This document shows positions 59,874-64,000 of a stretch of 64,000 bases of DNA, piece by piece. The position numbers were made by a program, and so were the translations under genes. Every line of letters starts with the position of its first letter. Within the stretch, counting starts at the first letter, position 1. The DNA comes from an uncultured Planctomycetaceae bacterium (lineage in GTDB: Bacteria > Planctomycetota > Planctomycetia > Pirellulales > PNKZ01), in NCBI GenBank assembly GCA_964387325.1, contig CAYLYE010000001.1, forward strand, positions 19,453 through 83,452, written 5' to 3'. The notes beneath the pieces are model-generated. The model ran no database searches and was not told the DNA's origin. It worked only from the letters and a program-made list of their open reading frames with translations.

Positions 59874-61259
59874 ATGCGGACAACTTTGCTGGCCACCTTG
59901 ATTTTGCTTGGCGGAGGCGCGGCCTCGGCCTGGGCTCAAGTCCCCTGCGCCTCGTGCGTGCAGGCTTATCGATTAAAGTGCGAAACCGTTTATGAAGAAC
60001 GGCAAGTCAACGCCTTCCGCGTCGACTACGAGACCGTCTACGACGAACGGCAGGTCACCACCTACCGACCCGTCTGGGAGACCGAGGTCCGTGAGCGCCG
60101 CTATCAAGTTGCTCGGCCGGTCTACGAGACCAGCGAGCGTGAAGAACGCTACACCGTACAAAAGCCGGTCTACGAGACCGTCGTCGAAGATCGCAGCTAT
60201 AACGTCGTGCGAAACGTCTACGAGACCAGCGAGCGCGAAGAGCGCTACACCGTACAAAAGCCGGTCTACGAGACCTATCAACAAGATCGTTCGTACACGG
60301 TTCGCCGCCCGGTCTATGAGACCAGCGAGCGTGAAGAGCACTGCACGGTCATGCAACCGGTGACCAGCTATCGACCCGTCCAGGTCGATCAAGGCAACTA
60401 CGTCGATCAGGTCGTCTGTCGGCCGGGCGCGGTCCATAACCGGCTCGCTTGGCAGCCCGCGGCTTGTGTGGTCGATCCGGCCACCGGAGTCACCGCGTAC
60501 AAGCCGGGCGGTTTGGCTTGGATGCCCGTGCAAGCTCCGCCCGTCACGCAGGTTTATCGTGCGTGGCAGCCGAATGTCGTTACGTACAACGTGCCGCAGG
60601 TCAGCTATGTGCCTCAGACGCAGGTTCGCAAGGTGCCGGTGCAAACCGTCCGCTGGGTCGATGAGCGCGTCGTGCAACAGGTCCCCGTGACCGTCTGCCG
60701 AATGGTTGCCGAAGAGCAGGTCCGCAAGGTGCCCGTGACTGTGTGTCGTCAGGTGGTCGAGCGGGTCGAGAACAAGGTCCCCGTCGAGGTTTGCAAGTAC
60801 GTGACCGAAGAGCAGGTCCGCAAGGTTCCGGTGACCGTGTGCCGCATGGTCTACGAAGAGAAGGTCGAGCAGACGCCTTATCGCGTCTGCAAGCAGGTGG
60901 CCGAGGTGCAGACGGTCAAGACGCCGCGCAGTGTCGAGAAGCGGACCCCCGTGACCTACACTTACAAAGTGCCACGGACGATCGTGTATCGCGTACCGGT
61001 CGACCCCTGTGGGAACGAGATTCCGGCGGCCGCAACGAGCCCGGCTCCGGCGGCGAGCACCACAGCCTCGCCCACTCCGGCGACGTCGAGCGCGCCGAGC
61101 GTCGGTGCCCCAACGACTCAACCGAGTTTGCCGACAGGTCCGACTGCGACCACCACGCAAAAGCCGGCCGAGTTGCCCGGGCCGGCCGCGCCGACTCCGG
61201 CCGCTCCAGTTCCTCCGGCCGCTCCCAAGGACGGCGCCGCCGAGAAGGCCAAGAGCTAG
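59874..61259 (+). CDS. YTV-repeat secreted protein with Pro/Ala/Thr-rich C-terminus
   Basis: I prefer the ATG at 59874, which gives a signal peptide (MRTTLLATLILLGGGAASAWAQ). It has repeated modules (VYETSEREERYTVQKPVYET...) and (EEQVRKVPVTVCRMV...), which correspond to the planctomycete 'YTV' repeat family as I recall it. Confidence 0.8.
   Translation: MRTTLLATLILLGGGAASAWAQVPCASCVQAYRLKCETVYEERQVNAFRVDYETVYDERQVTTYRPVWETEVRERRYQVARPVYETSEREERYTVQKPVYETVVEDRSYNVVRNVYETSEREERYTVQKPVYETYQQDRSYTVRRPVYETSEREEHCTVMQPVTSYRPVQVDQGNYVDQVVCRPGAVHNRLAWQPAACVVDPATGVTAYKPGGLAWMPVQAPPVTQVYRAWQPNVVTYNVPQVSYVPQTQVRKVPVQTVRWVDERVVQQVPVTVCRMVAEEQVRKVPVTVCRQVVERVENKVPVEVCKYVTEEQVRKVPVTVCRMVYEEKVEQTPYRVCKQVAEVQTVKTPRSVEKRTPVTYTYKVPRTIVYRVPVDPCGNEIPAAATSPAPAASTTASPTPATSSAPSVGAPTTQPSLPTGPTATTTQKPAELPGPAAPTPAAPVPPAAPKDGAAEKAKS
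60120..60407. repeat. three 96-bp in-frame tandem repeats inside the YTV gene
   Basis: Units start at 60120, 60216 and 60312 (gtctacgagaccagcgagcg.gaaga.c...). A second 96-bp periodicity links 60711 and 60807 (gaagagcaggtccgcaaggt.cc.gtgac.gtgtg). Confidence 0.85.
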
Positions 61260-61290
61260 TCCGCTCGTCACGAGTAGGTCAAAGGGGTGC

Positions 61291-61314
61291 CATGCTCACG
61301 TCTGCGTGAGCATG
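61291..61314. terminator. perfect 10-bp stem hairpin downstream of the YTV gene
   Basis: The sequence is CATGCTCACG-tctg-CGTGAGCATG, located 32 nt after the stop at 61259. The motif is related to the CATG...CATG hairpins of the double-hairpin element. Confidence 0.5.
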
Positions 61315-61461
61315 CGGTTGAGCCAGCGCCGCGGGGTTCGGTTCGCACGTCTTGTGAGCCGGACCCCGCTTGGTTTCCTCCCCAAGTCGTCGACTTGGCA
61401 TTAGAATGGAACGCAAGTACGGCTCGTTCGAGCCGCTTTGCTCTCTCCGGAGTCGGACACG

Positions 61462-61683
61462 ATGCGCGATGGGGACCTGAGCCTGGTCAGCAGCTCGTTG
61501 CAGTACGCCTACAAAGTGCTGCGGCAGCGTTGGGACGACACCGAAGAGGTCTGGCGCGACGTGGTCCGCAAGCGGTTCGACGAACAGCACATCGAACCCA
61601 TCGAGCCCACGGTGCTCAACACACTCAAGGCGATCAACCGACTCTCGTCGGTCTTGGAACGTGCCCGCGAGGAGTGCTCGTGA
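61462..61683 (+). CDS. small (73-aa) all-helical protein, possible WXG100-like helical hairpin
   Basis: The ATG at 61462 has GGAG 9 nt upstream (the listed ORF uses TTG 61438). It has two predicted helices separated by PIEP. Its stop codon (TGA) overlaps the GTG of the downstream long ORF (GTGA). Confidence 0.6.
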   Translation: MRDGDLSLVSSSLQYAYKVLRQRWDDTEEVWRDVVRKRFDEQHIEPIEPTVLNTLKAINRLSSVLERAREECS

Positions 61684-64000
61684 AAGTCGACGGCCAGAGT
61701 GAACATCCGGTCCGCGCGCAAGAAGCGCTGCTGGAGCGGCTGACGCAGGCGGCGCAGACACGTGCGGCGGTGATCGCCAGCATCGACGGCGAACTGCAAG
61801 AGGCCAAGGTCGCGGCCCGCGACGCGCTGCAAGCGGCCACCGAGCGTGCCGAGGGGGCGCGACAACACGATCTGGCCGAGGCTCAACAATCGCGGCAACA
61901 ACGATTGCACCGGCTCCAGCAGCGTTACGAAGGGGACTACCGTGTCATGCAGCAGCGTTGGGGCGAGCGCCGCGACAAGATCAACGCCCGCGTCAATGCG
62001 ATCCGCGGCAAGGCCAAGCGCGACCTCAAGGAGAGCAGCCTCGACATCCAGAATGTGTTCGACGCCACCAAGCACCGCCCGCGACGCGAGTTTCAGGAGG
62101 CGCAGAAGCAAGTCGATCAGCGTGCCGCGCGGCTCGAAGCGATGGCCGAGGAAGCCAAGCATTTTCTGTTCGACTGTCGGCTGTTCCGTCCACCGCACGT
62201 CGACCCTGAAGTGCCTCGCCCCGCGAGCGAAGACGAGGCGCTGCAAACCTTTCTCGCCCGGCTCGCCGAGTCGGAAGCGAAGCTGGCCGAGCTGACGGCA
62301 CTCAAGTTGCCCCGGTTTTTTGCCGGCGGCACGCCCATCTGGGCCTACCTTGCCTTGTGGCTACTGCTCGCCTATCCGGCGGGTCATTTGCACGATTGGG
62401 ACTACGCCTACTTGGCCAGCAGCGGTGGCGCGGCGGTGGCGCTGGGGACGCTGCTGTGTGTCTGGCTCTACGCGATCGCCCGCCGCCACACGAGCGCGCG
62501 CTACGACACGCTCTGCCAGCAGTTGCTCGAAGCCGAACAGGCCAAGGCCCGCTGGCTCGAACTGGCCGTGCAGCGCTGTCAGCGTGAGACGACCGCGATC
62601 ATGCAGAAGTATCAGGCCGACATGGCCTCGGCCAAGTCACGATACGAGACAACCAAGACCGCCGCGATTGCCGAGCGCGATCAGCAATTGGCTGCGGCCG
62701 AGAATGAGTTCGGTCCGCCCGTCTCGCAGTTCGAGATGTACCACTCGCAGGAGTCGGTCGAGTTGGAAGAGGCGTTGCACGCCGCCGAGCGTCAGGCCGA
62801 CGAGGTCATGCAGCAAGCGTTGAGGTTGGCCCAACGGCAGCACGACGAGGCGCTCGCCGCCGCGAACGAAGCCGCGCGTCACAAGCACGCCGCCGCCGAC
62901 CAGGTCTGGCAACAAGCGTGGCAAGCCAGCCAGCAGTCGTCGGTCGCGATCGCCGAGCAGTGTCGGCAATGGTTCCCACCGTGGAAAGCCGAGTCCTGGC
63001 AGCAGTGGCCTCCGCCCAAGGACATTGCCCCAGTCATTCGCTTTGGTCAATTCGCGATCCGCAGCGAGCACGTAGCCGAGGATCTGCCCAAGCTCGACGA
63101 CAAGTCGCGGATCGTGCTGCCCGCGCTGCTCGAGTTCCCCGATCGTTGCTCGCTGATGATCCGCGCCGGCGGTGCGGGACGCGTTCACGCCGTCGATTTG
63201 CTCCAAGCCGTGATGATGCGGTTCCTCACGTCGATCCCGCCGGGCAAGGTGCGGTACACGATCGTCGATCCCGTCGGACTCGGCCAGAATTTCGCTGGCT
63301 TCATGCATCTGGCCGACTACGACGAACTGCTCGTGACGCACAAGATCTGGACCGAGCCGCAGCAAATCGAACAACGGCTCGCCGAGCTGTCGAGCCACAT
63401 GGCGAACGTGATTCAGAAGTATCTGCGTAATGAGTTCGAGACGATCGACGAGTACAATGTGCACGCAGGCGAGGTGGCCGAACCGTATCGCGTCGTGGTC
63501 GTGGCGAACTTCCCTTTTAACTTTACCGAGGCCGCGACGCGCCATCTGGTCAGCATCGCGACGACCGGCGCTCGCTGCGGCGTCTACACGCTGATTAGCA
63601 TCGACCCCAAGCTCCCTTTGCCGCACGGATTTCGTCCCTCGGACCTGGAACAAAGCTGCATCAAGCTCGTGTGGCGCGAGAACGGCTTTGCCCGCAAGGA
63701 CGACACGTTCGAGCGTTTTCCGTTGCTCGTCGATGGTCCGCCCGAGGGAGAGCTCTTCTCACAAATCGTGCACCAAGTGGGCGAGGCGGCCAAGGACGCC
63801 AACCGAGTCGAAGTGCCGTTCGAGTTCATCGCTCCGGCCGAGGCCCGCTGGTGGACGCACGACAGCCGCGGCGGGGTCGACATTCCGCTCGGCCGCGCCG
63901 GCGCCACCAAGCGACAGCACTTACAGCTAGGACGCGGCACCAGCCAGCACGTGCTCATCGCCGGCAAGACGGGCTCGGGCAAGTCGACCTTGCTGCACGC
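61680..64000 (+). CDS. FtsK/SpoIIIE-family multi-domain membrane ATPase (EssC/EccC-like architecture), 3'-truncated by the window edge; absent from the supplied ORF track
   Basis: My hand translation shows the frame with codon starts at positions divisible by 3 is open from 61278 to the window end. I verified codon boundaries at lines 62041, 62581, 63061, 63421, 63901 and 63961. Candidate starts are GTG 61680 and GTG 61674. Two TM helices lie at about 62334-62480. The canonical Walker A, GKTGSGKST, is at 63963-63989 in the context LGRGTSQHVLIAGKTGSGKSTLLH. Confidence 0.85.
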   Translation, partial: MKVDGQSEHPVRAQEALLERLTQAAQTRAAVIASIDGELQEAKVAARDALQAATERAEGARQHDLAEAQQSRQQRLHRLQQRYEGDYRVMQQRWGERRDKINARVNAIRGKAKRDLKESSLDIQNVFDATKHRPRREFQEAQKQVDQRAARLEAMAEEAKHFLFDCRLFRPPHVDPEVPRPASEDEALQTFLARLAESEAKLAELTALKLPRFFAGGTPIWAYLALWLLLAYPAGHLHDWDYAYLASSGGAAVALGTLLCVWLYAIARRHTSARYDTLCQQLLEAEQAKARWLELAVQRCQRETTAIMQKYQADMASAKSRYETTKTAAIAERDQQLAAAENEFGPPVSQFEMYHSQESVELEEALHAAERQADEVMQQALRLAQRQHDEALAAANEAARHKHAAADQVWQQAWQASQQSSVAIAEQCRQWFPPWKAESWQQWPPPKDIAPVIRFGQFAIRSEHVAEDLPKLDDKSRIVLPALLEFPDRCSLMIRAGGAGRVHAVDLLQAVMMRFLTSIPPGKVRYTIVDPVGLGQNFAGFMHLADYDELLVTHKIWTEPQQIEQRLAELSSHMANVIQKYLRNEFETIDEYNVHAGEVAEPYRVVVVANFPFNFTEAATRHLVSIATTGARCGVYTLISIDPKLPLPHGFRPSDLEQSCIKLVWRENGFARKDDTFERFPLLVDGPPEGELFSQIVHQVGEAAKDANRVEVPFEFIAPAEARWWTHDSRGGVDIPLGRAGATKRQHLQLGRGTSQHVLIAGKTGSGKSTLLH

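Follow-up and report, generated by a model that had tools for sequence, protein, structure and literature searches.

We suggest that two adjoining genes at the end of a 64,000-nucleotide stretch of DNA from an uncultured Planctomycetaceae bacterium (hereafter the window) represent the planctomycete version of a stand-alone module of WXG100 proteins and an EssC-like ATPase, probably a minimal export system of the type VII (T7SS) kind. The components of this reading differ in strength: of the assignment to the WXG100/EssC-like ATPase family we are highly confident, and export is the function that we lean towards for the module.

The first gene (61462..61683, forward strand), supported by its translation, alignments, an AF2 model, Foldseek matches and dN/dS, encodes a 73-aa protein and begins with an ATG 9 nt downstream of a GGAG ribosome-binding site (61449..61452, forward strand). 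Its TGA stop overlaps the GTG start of the ATPase gene (GTGA at 61680-61683), and the ribosome-binding site of the ATPase gene (GAGGAG, 61669..61674, forward strand) sits 5 nt upstream of this GTG, within the Glu-Glu codons of the small ORF. Because of this overlap and of the ribosome-binding site placed within the small ORF, the two genes are, as judged from the sequence, translationally coupled, which would favour co-ordinated production of the small protein and the ATPase. The junction, GAGGA(G/A)TGCTCGTGA, is common to the window, to a 94%-identical relative (L001) and to a second locus (L002) whose ATPase shares 52% protein identity. The ATPase gene (61680..64000, forward strand) leaves the window after the first 773 codons of a protein of about 1300 aa; its frame has no stop from 61680 to base 63998, where it ends in ...IAGKTGSGKSTLLH. 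The sequence-only reading had given this small ORF, its ribosome-binding site, the overlap and a frame open for at least 773 codons up to an FtsK/SpoIIIE P-loop, and all of these were confirmed (the P-loop reads GKTGSGKST), as was its explanation that the long frame was unlisted for lack of a stop in the window: the ORF list leaves out frames that run off an end. The list does hold a 338-aa antisense ORF (62637..63653, reverse strand), which shadows the ATPase gene and which we reject as a gene of its own; shadow ORFs over the ATPase recur in related loci only as by-products.

Upstream of the pair lies a gene for a YTV-repeat protein with a signal peptide (PF07639, 1.3e-38). The region between it and the small ORF has a folding z of -4.8 and contains two structures, both on the forward strand: a hairpin with a 10-bp stem 3' of the YTV gene, seen in sequence and fold (61292..61315), in which one compensatory A-T to C-G change separates the window from L001, and a terminator-like hairpin of 17 pairs with a T-rich tail (61331..61379), with a compensatory C-G to T-A change in the same comparison. 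The earlier placement of the pair behind a YTV-repeat gene and its terminator hairpin agrees with these results.

The 73-aa protein appears, on the combined sequence comparisons and structure prediction, to be a diverged hairpin of the WXG100 fold. The AF2 model (pLDDT 89) places helices at residues 3-29 and 33-72, and with this model as the query the top 20 PDB matches in Foldseek were all Esx/WXG100 proteins (EsxB with a TM of 0.84 and an rmsd of 1.4 Å). A word-index search with the single sequence returned only the protein itself; an alignment query yielded the relatives, a family of 279, a few of which had been named 'YukE' by JGI. In the family alignments (A2 and A4), W31 and D33 of the W31-x-D33 turn are invariant and C72 is nearly so. 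The best PDB match of the family profile is S. aureus EsxA, with W-x-D aligned to W-x-G; 9 of 33 family members weakly match the Pfam WXG100 model, an annotated WXG100 protein from Caballeronia gets 25.8 bits from the family HMM, and hhalign of the family against the WXG100 family of related cassettes gives P 0.0055, which is suggestive only. Each of these sequence tests is weak by itself (E 0.005-0.05), and the likeness to WXG100 proteins is convincing only because the tests agree with one another and with the fold match.

For the ATPase, the nearest named relatives in sequence comparisons are the T7SS motors EssC and EccC and not FtsK. The window-cut end of the protein matches Pfam FtsK_SpoIIIE at 4.4e-9; the best PDB matches are EccC (4nh0, 5e-31), EccC5 and YukB, against only about 1e-6 for FtsK, and among NCBIfam models EssC (4e-31), EccCa (4.5e-28) and EccCb (1.8e-25) stand far before FtsK (2e-3). 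These three T7SS models score the protein at 89-108 bits, below their cut-offs of 347-778 bits (107 vs 778 for the best). Matches returned by PADLOC (SspH, mad8, mad3, ZorA) come from a general likeness to FtsK/HerA proteins or to coiled coils, and imply no membership in those systems. Homologues are abundant: the collection of species-representative genomes holds 568 confirmed stretches, all named organisms among the best 80 of the 568 are Planctomycetota, and at 50% identity the proteins of the planctomycete clade form more than 1000 clusters. They match essentially the whole profile, unless cut by a contig end or, at one locus, apparently frameshifted. Looking up the small ORF exactly (as the 73-aa and 81-aa versions and as P0006) led to no contig, the metagenome collection lacked an exact match to a 41-mer taken at the end of the window, and protein-guided genome scans gave no relative above 57-61% identity. 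The contig of the 94% relative stops at the ATPase stop codon.

Full-length homologues of about 1300 aa, among them one of 1298 aa that is 94% identical to the window's ATPase (P0001), begin with a helical N-terminus, followed by two transmembrane helices, another helical stretch and three FtsK-like domains. The parts that the window reaches are all encoded on its forward strand. An N-terminal, putatively cytoplasmic helical and coiled-coil-like region (aa 1-212, 61680..62315), assigned on composition, is followed by two hydrophobic helices at about aa 213-235 and 245-268 (62316..62489), which on hydropathy form a putative transmembrane hairpin, and by a second helical region with a linker (aa 271-469, 62490..63087; alignment A1 and composition). 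A/E/Q/R/K/L make up 64% of residues 1-212 and 271-430, where Pro and Gly are few, a purely compositional signal that fits helix-rich regions. Of 69 full-length homologues from planctomycetes, 57 have two hydrophobic segments at the equivalent position, and every one has at least one.

The first FtsK-like domain (domain I, aa 470-722, 63088..63845), delimited by alignment A1, the EssC model and hhalign, is degenerate, with RAGGAGR at the Walker A position and VVVANF at the Walker B position. Walker motifs are confined to domain II, where both the GKTGSGKST (63963..63989) and the LLVDEFQE are invariant in alignment A1. Domain I alone and the Walker A of domain II lie within the window; domain III is deduced from P0001. 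By hhalign, domain III matches domain II with 96.6% probability (E 6e-10) and domain I matches domain III with 83% (E 9e-6). A direct comparison of domains I and II was not significant, and the homology of domain I is accepted because of its match to domain III and to the EssC model (4e-6); searches with this domain reach 2310 clusters at 50% identity. An AF2 model of the three domains (P0001 aa 432-1298, 5 sequences) reached a pLDDT of 48, was unusable and was not taken to a fold search. From the motifs, domain II alone is predicted to hydrolyse ATP, with domains I and III catalytically dead. The multi-P-loop ATPase of the sequence-only reading therefore needs correction in the catalytic sense: of three FtsK-like domains, only one has kept Walker A and B.

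The genomic context places this pair in a larger unit. At 95 of 129 informative planctomycete loci the order is WXG100 gene, a gene for a helical protein of 190-220 aa (mid), small gene and ATPase gene, in which the canonical WXG100 gene matches PF06013 at 8.7e-10; the small gene is conserved directly upstream of the ATPase gene at 111 of the 129, and no other component is as tightly linked to the ATPase as the 73-aa protein. For the mid protein no credible family emerged from Pfam or PDB, nor was a nuclease domain seen; a tape-measure match (1.3e-4) was rejected as compositional between coiled-coil-like regions. Its HMM picks up the proteins Rho_314, Dei_326 and Cab_436 around a common 'P-x-C..E' turn. 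The window holds the last two genes, the 3'-proximal half, of this four-gene cassette, and neither the canonical WXG100 gene nor the mid gene was found in its 64 kb. The small and ATPase genes occur without the other two at 5 of the 129 loci, including the window and its 94% relative. Two metagenome-assembled genomes carry two loci each, namely GFS_7813 (full cassette L017 and WXG-less cassette L033) and SMAG_U5888 (full cassette L015 and ATPase fragment L065, its upstream region cut off), and therefore cassette partners can be encoded elsewhere. As both genes are missing from the window, its copy may work differently or need distant genes; presumably they lie elsewhere in this genome or can be dispensed with.

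Beyond the four genes, clustering of the ORFs of at least 100 aa at 85 loci revealed no conserved neighbour. The next commonest family is DUF1501, at 11 of the 85, and the flanks vary by locus with unrelated, mostly housekeeping Pfam content. The same clustering found no conserved partner resembling EccB/EccD/EccE/MycP or EssA/EssB/EsaA/EsaB-YukD beside the cassettes, so that the EssB-, EccB-, EccD- or mycosin-like genes that the sequence-only reading proposed to look for nearby were not found.

We propose a mechanism by analogy with EccC and EssC. The ATPase, with its helical N-terminus, two-helix membrane hairpin, helical stalk and three FtsK-like domains, would probably form a hexamer at the cytoplasmic membrane. 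The small protein would probably form dimers, either of itself alone or together with the 90-aa WXG100 protein of most related cassettes, and probably dock on a degenerate ATPase domain, serving there as substrate or activating co-factor, after which ATP hydrolysis by domain II could drive helical proteins across the inner membrane. Several points speak against export: near the cassettes there are no accessory membrane proteins of T7SSa or T7SSb to build a channel, cargo of a diderm planctomycete would have an outer membrane to pass as well, and the window copy lacks the WXG100 and mid genes. A bolder version, which we advance tentatively and would not yet favour, is that the membrane-anchored planctomycete clade constitutes a functional minimal T7SS that dispenses with EssB/EccB-E-type partners, comprises a TM-anchored EssC-like ATPase and two or three small helical proteins, and is widespread in a diderm phylum, with the W-x-D hairpin and not a canonical WXG100 protein as the obligatory motor-gating partner.

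The alternative that survives best, unlikely in our view, is an intracellular conflict or defence module and no exporter, in which an EssC-like hexamer and WXG100-like proteins would, for example, remodel or sense protein or nucleic-acid complexes, a role already suggested for TM-less homologues within TerY-P/CoCoNuT restriction loci. Homologous four-component modules occur on a Caballeronia plasmid, within a vWA/PP2C/kinase/CARF locus, and on a Rhodococcus plasmid, beside Ter genes; the active domain is also similar to FtsK-like domains found in SspH and mad8, two defence proteins, and channel-forming partners are not conserved near the cassettes. Bell et al. (2024; PMC11090510) describe CoCoNuT-linked homologues without transmembrane domains, and consider that such CoCoNuT/TerY-P-linked forms probably use 'a different mechanism'. 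However, the planctomycete ATPases have the conserved two-helix membrane hairpin that these defence-linked homologues lack, their cassettes stand alone with no conserved vWA, kinase or nuclease neighbour, the mid protein is free of a nuclease domain, and the closest characterised relatives of the ATPase are secretion motors.

The rarity of the two-gene state (5 of 129 loci) and the absence of the missing genes from 64 kb could also suggest a decaying remnant, non-functional after the loss of the WXG100 and mid genes. We consider this highly improbable, given the selection on both genes: relative to L001, the small ORF has a dN/dS of 0.06 (9 synonymous and 2 non-synonymous changes) and the ATPase one of 0.09, which falls to 0.009 in domain I (55 synonymous and 2 non-synonymous changes). 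The frame is intact over 773 codons with all motifs present, L001 and L002 retain both the ribosome-binding site and the GTGA overlap, and partners can sit elsewhere in the genome, as in GFS_7813 and SMAG_U5888. The small ORF and the ATPase gene are real genes under strong purifying selection, in a lineage without the WXG100 and mid genes. Lastly, a DNA pump, be it a chromosome-segregation FtsK or a conjugative TraB/TcpA-like translocase, is hardly credible: Pfam does put the active domain in FtsK_SpoIIIE, but FtsK scores only about 1e-6 (PDB) and 2e-3 (NCBIfam) vs about 1e-31 for EccC/EssC, only one of the three domains is catalytically intact, the full-length homologues stop directly after the third ATPase-like domain and so have no gamma (KOPS-binding) domain, the context holds no dif/Xer, relaxase or conjugation genes, and linkage to WXG100 genes is tight; the weak FtsK scores, the three tandem domains and the lack of a gamma domain refute a housekeeping FtsK in particular.

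To our knowledge, protein secretion in planctomycetes is little studied, and the export module favoured here would offer a new candidate route to the periplasm or beyond. A T7SS-like relative with 568 stretches in Planctomycetota would widen the range in which T7SS-like export is sought. If it does export, the cassette would be the smallest working set of the T7SS type, with one active P-loop domain between two dead ones, and as it has no EssB/EccB-E-type partners it would bear on the question of what forms the T7SS channel. Four genes in varied genomic contexts provide a minimal test case.

Set against known systems, the module is farthest from the FtsK chromosome translocase, which has a single motor (alpha/beta) and a C-terminal gamma (KOPS-binding) domain in place of three tandem domains and no gamma. 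With canonical T7SS it shares a gene for a membrane-anchored multi-domain FtsK-like ATPase that adjoins genes for WXG100-fold hairpins, and a succession of N-terminal cytoplasmic domain, two TM helices, stalk and ATPase domains, which agrees with the first suggestion that the locus could be T7SS-like: the matches to EccC/EssC/YukB at about 1e-31, the lack of a gamma domain and a probable WXG100-fold partner all point this way and away from the housekeeping FtsK. It differs in having three and not four ATPase-like domains, one of them active, so that it departs from the D0-D3 architecture; in a helical N-terminus instead of FHA domains; in scores far below the NCBIfam equivalog cut-offs; in loci without an EccB/D/E/MycP or EssA/EssB/EsaA/YukD-like partner; and in its host, a diderm phylum, whereas the survey by Garrett et al. 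(2024; PMC11217815) places T7SS subtypes (c-j included) in no phyla but Bacillota and Actinomycetota.

A closer parallel is Helicobacter pylori, where HP0062 and the FtsK-like HP0066 have been termed a minimal T7SS gene set (PMC4978471). HP0062 (PDB 3FX7/2GTS) is the best PDB match of the 90-aa WXG100 protein of the cassettes (full length, 5e-6), and has WRD in place of WXG (PMC3397514), a replacement of the kind also seen in the small protein of the window and in the WXG100 proteins of the cassettes. On a Helicobacter plasmid successive genes encode a WXG100 protein, an HNH toxin, a SUKH immunity protein, a 77-aa protein and an FtsK-like ATPase; this set differs from the planctomycete cassettes in the nuclease toxin and immunity gene at the cargo position and in an ATPase of about 820 aa that lacks the N-terminal helical region and the TM hairpin.

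The nearest kin is the operon of WXG100 and FtsK-like (EssC/YueA-like) genes that Zhang et al. (2012; PMC3482391, Table 1 footnote 6) listed as mobile or stand-alone in diderm and other phyla, with planctomycetes among the lineages credited with an ATPase of this type and with solo WXG genes. A detailed account, including an N-terminal coiled coil in ATPase homologues, came from Bell et al. (2024; PMC11090510, Type III-A CoCoNuT extensions), who cite Anantharaman et al. (2012) as the source for the stand-alone form. The operon type has thus been described computationally since 2012, and the suggestion of a novel or otherwise undescribed system is not supported; both PMC3482391 and PMC11090510 deduced secretion from the WXG100 genes, and our literature searches found no experimental study of the module in any phylum. 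Common to that operon and the planctomycete cassettes are three FtsK/HerA domains with the middle one active, a long N-terminal region that in the planctomycete proteins is putatively helical or coiled-coil-like, two small proteins of the WXG100 fold and a coiled-coil mid protein. The planctomycete cassettes differ in being chromosomal and outside TerY-P/CoCoNuT loci, in a mid protein without the restriction-endonuclease/HNH domain to which the coiled-coil partner is often fused there, and, in the window, in the absence of the WXG100 and mid genes. Their ATPases carry the two-helix membrane hairpin, in contrast to Caballeronia and Helicobacter homologues; this is a difference within the kind and not a ground for exclusion, and Zhang et al. 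(2012) set no such criterion. To these accounts our analysis adds a census of the planctomycete clade, its conserved membrane hairpin, the 73-aa protein as the tightest partner of the ATPase, and purifying selection on this pair even where the WXG100 and mid genes are missing.

The 73-residue ORF and the ATPase frame that follows it are, as comparison with relatives shows, two real genes that are translated in a coupled manner. Re-reading of the sequence recovered each element of the arrangement as the sequence-only reading had described it: on the forward strand, a GGAG ribosome-binding site (61449-61452) lies nine bases 5' of the ATG at 61462, the small ORF (61462-61683) ends in a TGA that overlaps a GTG (GTGA, 61680-61683), and this GTG opens 773 stop-free codons that run from 61680 to the window edge, ending ...IAGKTGSGKSTLLH. 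The ATPase gene has a Shine-Dalgarno-like GAGGAG of its own (61669-61674, forward strand), five bases 5' of the GTG, which coincides with the two Glu codons in the conserved C-terminal 'REECS' of the small protein. The long frame is missing from the ORF listing because the listing passes over ORFs running off the source sequence. The 338-aa ORF listed on the reverse strand (62637..63653) was rejected as a gene; it is a shadow of the ATPase gene, and such ORFs in related loci are only by-products of the conserved sense gene. Long antisense or off-frame ORFs of 338, 245, 170 and 167 aa lie over the ATPase gene (61680-64000) and recur in related high-GC genomes, where their apparent conservation on clustering only reflects that of the sense gene.

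A full-length homologue of 1298 aa, 94% identical to the ATPase (P0001), is encoded on an ENA metagenome contig (locus L001), where it is likewise preceded by the 73-aa ORF and by the YTV and DUF1501 genes. Roughly 525 codons of the ATPase gene are expected beyond the window edge. Against this locus, dN/dS is 0.06 for the small ORF (9 synonymous and 2 non-synonymous changes) and 0.09 for the 773 codons of the ATPase (152.5 and 56.5), a pattern that indicates purifying selection on the pair; a decaying remnant was rejected. L001 (4010-4024) has an identical stop/start junction, GAGGA(G/A)TGCTCGTGA, which is kept also in L002 (9990-10004), a locus whose ATPase is only 52% identical at the protein level; translational coupling is therefore a conserved trait of this sub-clade. 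Among relatives further away, tens of bases usually separate the two genes.

The pair was also correctly placed downstream of a YTV-repeat protein gene (59874-61259; Pfam 1.3e-38) and a terminator-like hairpin of 17 pairs (61331-61369). The protein encoded directly upstream carries a signal peptide, at least six repeats and a Pro/Ala/Thr-rich C-terminal tail, and the same gene stands 5' of the pair in L001. The intergenic region of about 200 nt (61260-61461) carries an unusual amount of structure (MFE -101.9 kcal/mol, z = -4.8, four hairpins). Compared with L001, compensatory changes are seen in the 61292-61315 stem (A-T to C-G) and in the 61331-61369 stem (C-G to T-A), and the hairpins are therefore under selection, as a terminator; in addition they may act as a 5' leader or a regulatory element for the small-ORF/ATPase unit.

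A word-index search retrieved five homologues of the ATPase, all of 1298-1313 aa, and their alignment together with hydropathy analysis defines the architecture of the protein: about 212 helix-rich N-terminal residues, two hydrophobic helices (approximately aa 213-268), some 170 further helix-rich residues, and a C-terminal part made of three tandem alpha/beta domains (I, II and III). The hydrophobic hairpin that separates the two helical regions is a general feature of the planctomycete ATPases, with two segments in 57/69 and at least one in 69/69. The sequence-only reading had expected a multi-P-loop ATPase, an expectation that did not hold in the catalytic sense, as Walker motifs (GKTGSGKST and LLVDEFQE) are confined to the middle domain in the alignment of homologues. 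The matching positions read RAGGAGR and VVVANF in domain I, and IGQQSEAAL and LFIYDIQRF in domain III. Profile-profile comparison over 69 planctomycete sequences identifies domain III as homologous to domain II (96.6%, E 6e-10) and domain I as homologous to domain III (83%, E 9e-6), and domain I matches the EssC model directly. Modelling of the three domains with AF2 from five sequences only reached a pLDDT of 48, too low for the model to be of use.

The catalytically dead domain I (63088-63845, aa 470-722) is the most constrained part of the ATPase, with a dN/dS of 0.009 against L001 (55 synonymous and 2 non-synonymous changes); it probably serves as a key surface for binding or assembly. Used alone in a full HMMER scan, this domain returned 2310 clusters at 50% identity, 1002 of them at E ≤ 1e-30; among the 150 matches listed it sits at about residues 440-740 in apparently full-length proteins of about 1300 aa.

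The closest named relatives of the ATPase are the motors of type VII secretion. In the PDB its matches are T. curvata EccC (5e-31), EccC5 (1.4e-21) and YukB (1.7e-21), and in NCBIfam EssC (4e-31), EccCa (4.5e-28) and EccCb (1.8e-25). All scores lie far under the curated equivalog cut-offs, and we therefore call the protein EssC-like and not a true EssC. The chromosome-segregation FtsK against which the sequence-only reading had been set can be dismissed: FtsK scores (only about 1e-6 in the PDB and 2e-3 in NCBIfam) are far weaker than those of EccC/EssC, and no FtsK gamma domain was found, since the protein stops directly after domain III. A DNA pump was rejected on the same body of evidence.

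The type VII reading gains further from the small protein, the predicted structure of which is a WXG100-type hairpin. An AF2 model from 62 sequences (pLDDT 89) gives a two-helix hairpin (residues 3-29 and 33-72) with W31 in the turn, and the 20 best Foldseek matches in the PDB are without exception Esx/WXG100 proteins, among them B. anthracis EsxB (TM 0.84, rmsd 1.4 Å), H. pylori HP0062, CFP-10/ESAT-6, T. curvata EsxA/B and M. abscessus EsxE/F; the E-values, about 0.1, are at the level expected for a 73-residue hairpin. With an alignment as query, 279 relatives (70-85 aa) were found, and JGI labels a few as 'YukE'; in this family W31 and D33 are invariant and L13, F39 and C72 nearly so. Its profile has S. 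aureus EsxA as best PDB match (E 0.042, W-x-D falling on W-x-G), WXG100 is the Pfam family matched by the largest number of members (9/33), and an NCBI-annotated WXG100 protein encoded on a Caballeronia plasmid reaches 25.8 bits with the family HMM. The small ORF is matched by the cassette WXG100 proteins of related loci at E 0.02-0.08 (tblastn), and hhalign aligns the two families locally across the turn (P 0.0055). Each of these sequence-level links is weak alone, and all point in the same direction.

Four more distant homologues found first all lie in the same compact cassette, with unrelated flanks every time, consisting of genes for a WXG100 protein (90 aa, PF06013 8.7e-10), a helical protein of 190-217 aa that matched no known family (here termed mid), the small protein (70-75 aa) and the ATPase. 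A one-genome-per-species scan yielded at least 568 confirmed stretches, and the named organisms among the best 80 of these are all Planctomycetota (Pirellulales, Gemmatales, Isosphaerales, Planctomycetales, Phycisphaerae, Kuenenia); a metagenome scan added a further 80 loci. One full cassette (L011) belongs to a culturable species, Singulisphaera sp. Ch08 (NZ_CP155447.1, around 5.08-5.10 Mb). HMM scans of all six-frame ORFs, informative for 129 loci, demonstrate the gene linkage: WXG100-mid-small-ATPase in 95, mid-small-ATPase in 11, small-ATPase in five (the window and its close relative included) and ATPase alone in 18. The proposed co-conservation of the small ORF with the ATPase is thus borne out, the small gene being the partner most faithfully linked to it, as adjacent gene in 111/129 loci. 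Clustering of all larger ORFs from 85 loci revealed no further conserved neighbour; EssB-, EccB-, EccD- or mycosin-like genes, which had been envisaged nearby, were not found there.

The window thus carries a minority arrangement, and WXG100 and mid genes are absent throughout its 64 kb. The YTV-repeat gene fills the place that these two genes take in other genomes and is unrelated to either. The ATPase-alone loci (about 14% of those informative) encode a full-length ATPase with no WXG100, mid or small gene within 10 kb (L027, L029, L034, L041, L049, L057, L074, L083 and ten metagenome loci, e.g., L095, L096, L098); some stand behind a polyketide synthase or GNAT-like gene, and one is in a Kuenenia MAG. 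Two genomes hold two ATPase copies: the Isosphaeraceae MAG GFS_7813 has a full and a WXG-less cassette (L017 and L033), and the MAG SMAG_U5888 has a full cassette (L015) plus a second ATPase fragment cut by the contig end (L065), which suggests paralogous systems that may share substrates.

Searches of plasmids (tblastn) found homologues spanning two or all three ATPase domains outside the Planctomycetota. A Rhodococcus plasmid has, adjoining Ter genes, the ATPase, a mid-like gene, a 73-aa protein with 'DLWRDVVFKRIED' and WXG100, in that order. On a Caballeronia plasmid, genes for WXG100, a coiled-coil protein, 113-aa and 76-aa proteins and the ATPase lie within a vWA/CARF/PP2C/kinase locus. 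The Deinococcus actinosclerus plasmid (L092, 5345-8625) encodes a 142-aa helical protein with a C-terminal TM anchor directly 5' of a TM-less three-domain ATPase, followed by two WXG100-like genes (88 and 94 aa), a mid-like gene and a 144-aa small-like gene; the 142-aa protein resembles the N-terminal region of the planctomycete ATPase in split-off form. On the plasmid of Helicobacter sp. NHP19-012 (L090, 3761-8163), the order is WXG100, HNH toxin, SUKH immunity, a 77-aa gene and the ATPase, so that the planctomycete mid position is taken by an HNH endonuclease, the N-terminal region of which is helical, together with a SUKH (SMI1/KNR4) immunity gene; this is the layout of a polymorphic toxin that the system would export. 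A conserved 'P-S-C' at the helix turn marks the mid proteins of L002-L088 and the mid-like proteins of Rhodococcus, Deinococcus and Caballeronia, and the near-invariant Cys72 of the small protein (61675-61677) lies two residues from its C-terminus; together they hint at a metal site or disulfide.

By analogy with EccC/EssC, export is the most likely mechanism. The ATPase would form a hexamer at the cytoplasmic membrane, and the small W-x-D hairpin would form homodimers or pair with the 90-aa WXG100 protein. The dimer would dock on a degenerate domain, and domain I is a candidate for this in view of its constraint, the strongest in the ATPase; ATP turnover in domain II would then export the helical proteins over the inner membrane. 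An intracellular role in conflict, which has been put forward for TM-less, defence-linked homologues, is the chief rival. Against it stand the membrane hairpin of the planctomycete ATPases and the non-defence context of their cassettes, which, unlike those of the defence-linked homologues, are chromosomal and lie among ordinary genes. For the planctomycete module an intracellular role is the less probable reading.

That the module is an undescribed system, as had been considered, is not supported. The operon type was already treated by Zhang et al. (2012; PMC3482391) and again by Bell et al. (2024; PMC11090510), in whose account the EssC-like ATPase is active in the central domain only and has at its N-terminus a coiled coil longer than 200 aa, the operon includes two WXG100 proteins (one without the WxG motif) and a coiled-coil-nuclease fusion, and the copies studied are without transmembrane helices. 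A 2024 survey of T7SS subtypes covers Bacillota and Actinomycetota only (PMC11217815), and we found no experimental work on the WXG100/EssC-like module in the literature. The module belongs to a stand-alone WXG100/EssC-like kind that is known computationally and experimentally untouched, and its central idea was published as early as 2012. For the planctomycete 90-aa WXG100 protein, the PDB gives H. pylori HP0062 as best match; HP0062 has WRD in place of WXG and is encoded near the FtsK-like HP0066 (PMC3397514; PMC4978471). The planctomycete mid protein, which ends in a Pro/Ala-rich tail, corresponds to the helical part alone of the coiled-coil-nuclease fusion of Bell et al., with no nuclease domain. 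The two-helix hydrophobic hairpin is conserved in the planctomycete ATPases and missing in the Caballeronia and Helicobacter homologues, and the window locus belongs to a large planctomycete clade set apart by this membrane anchor.
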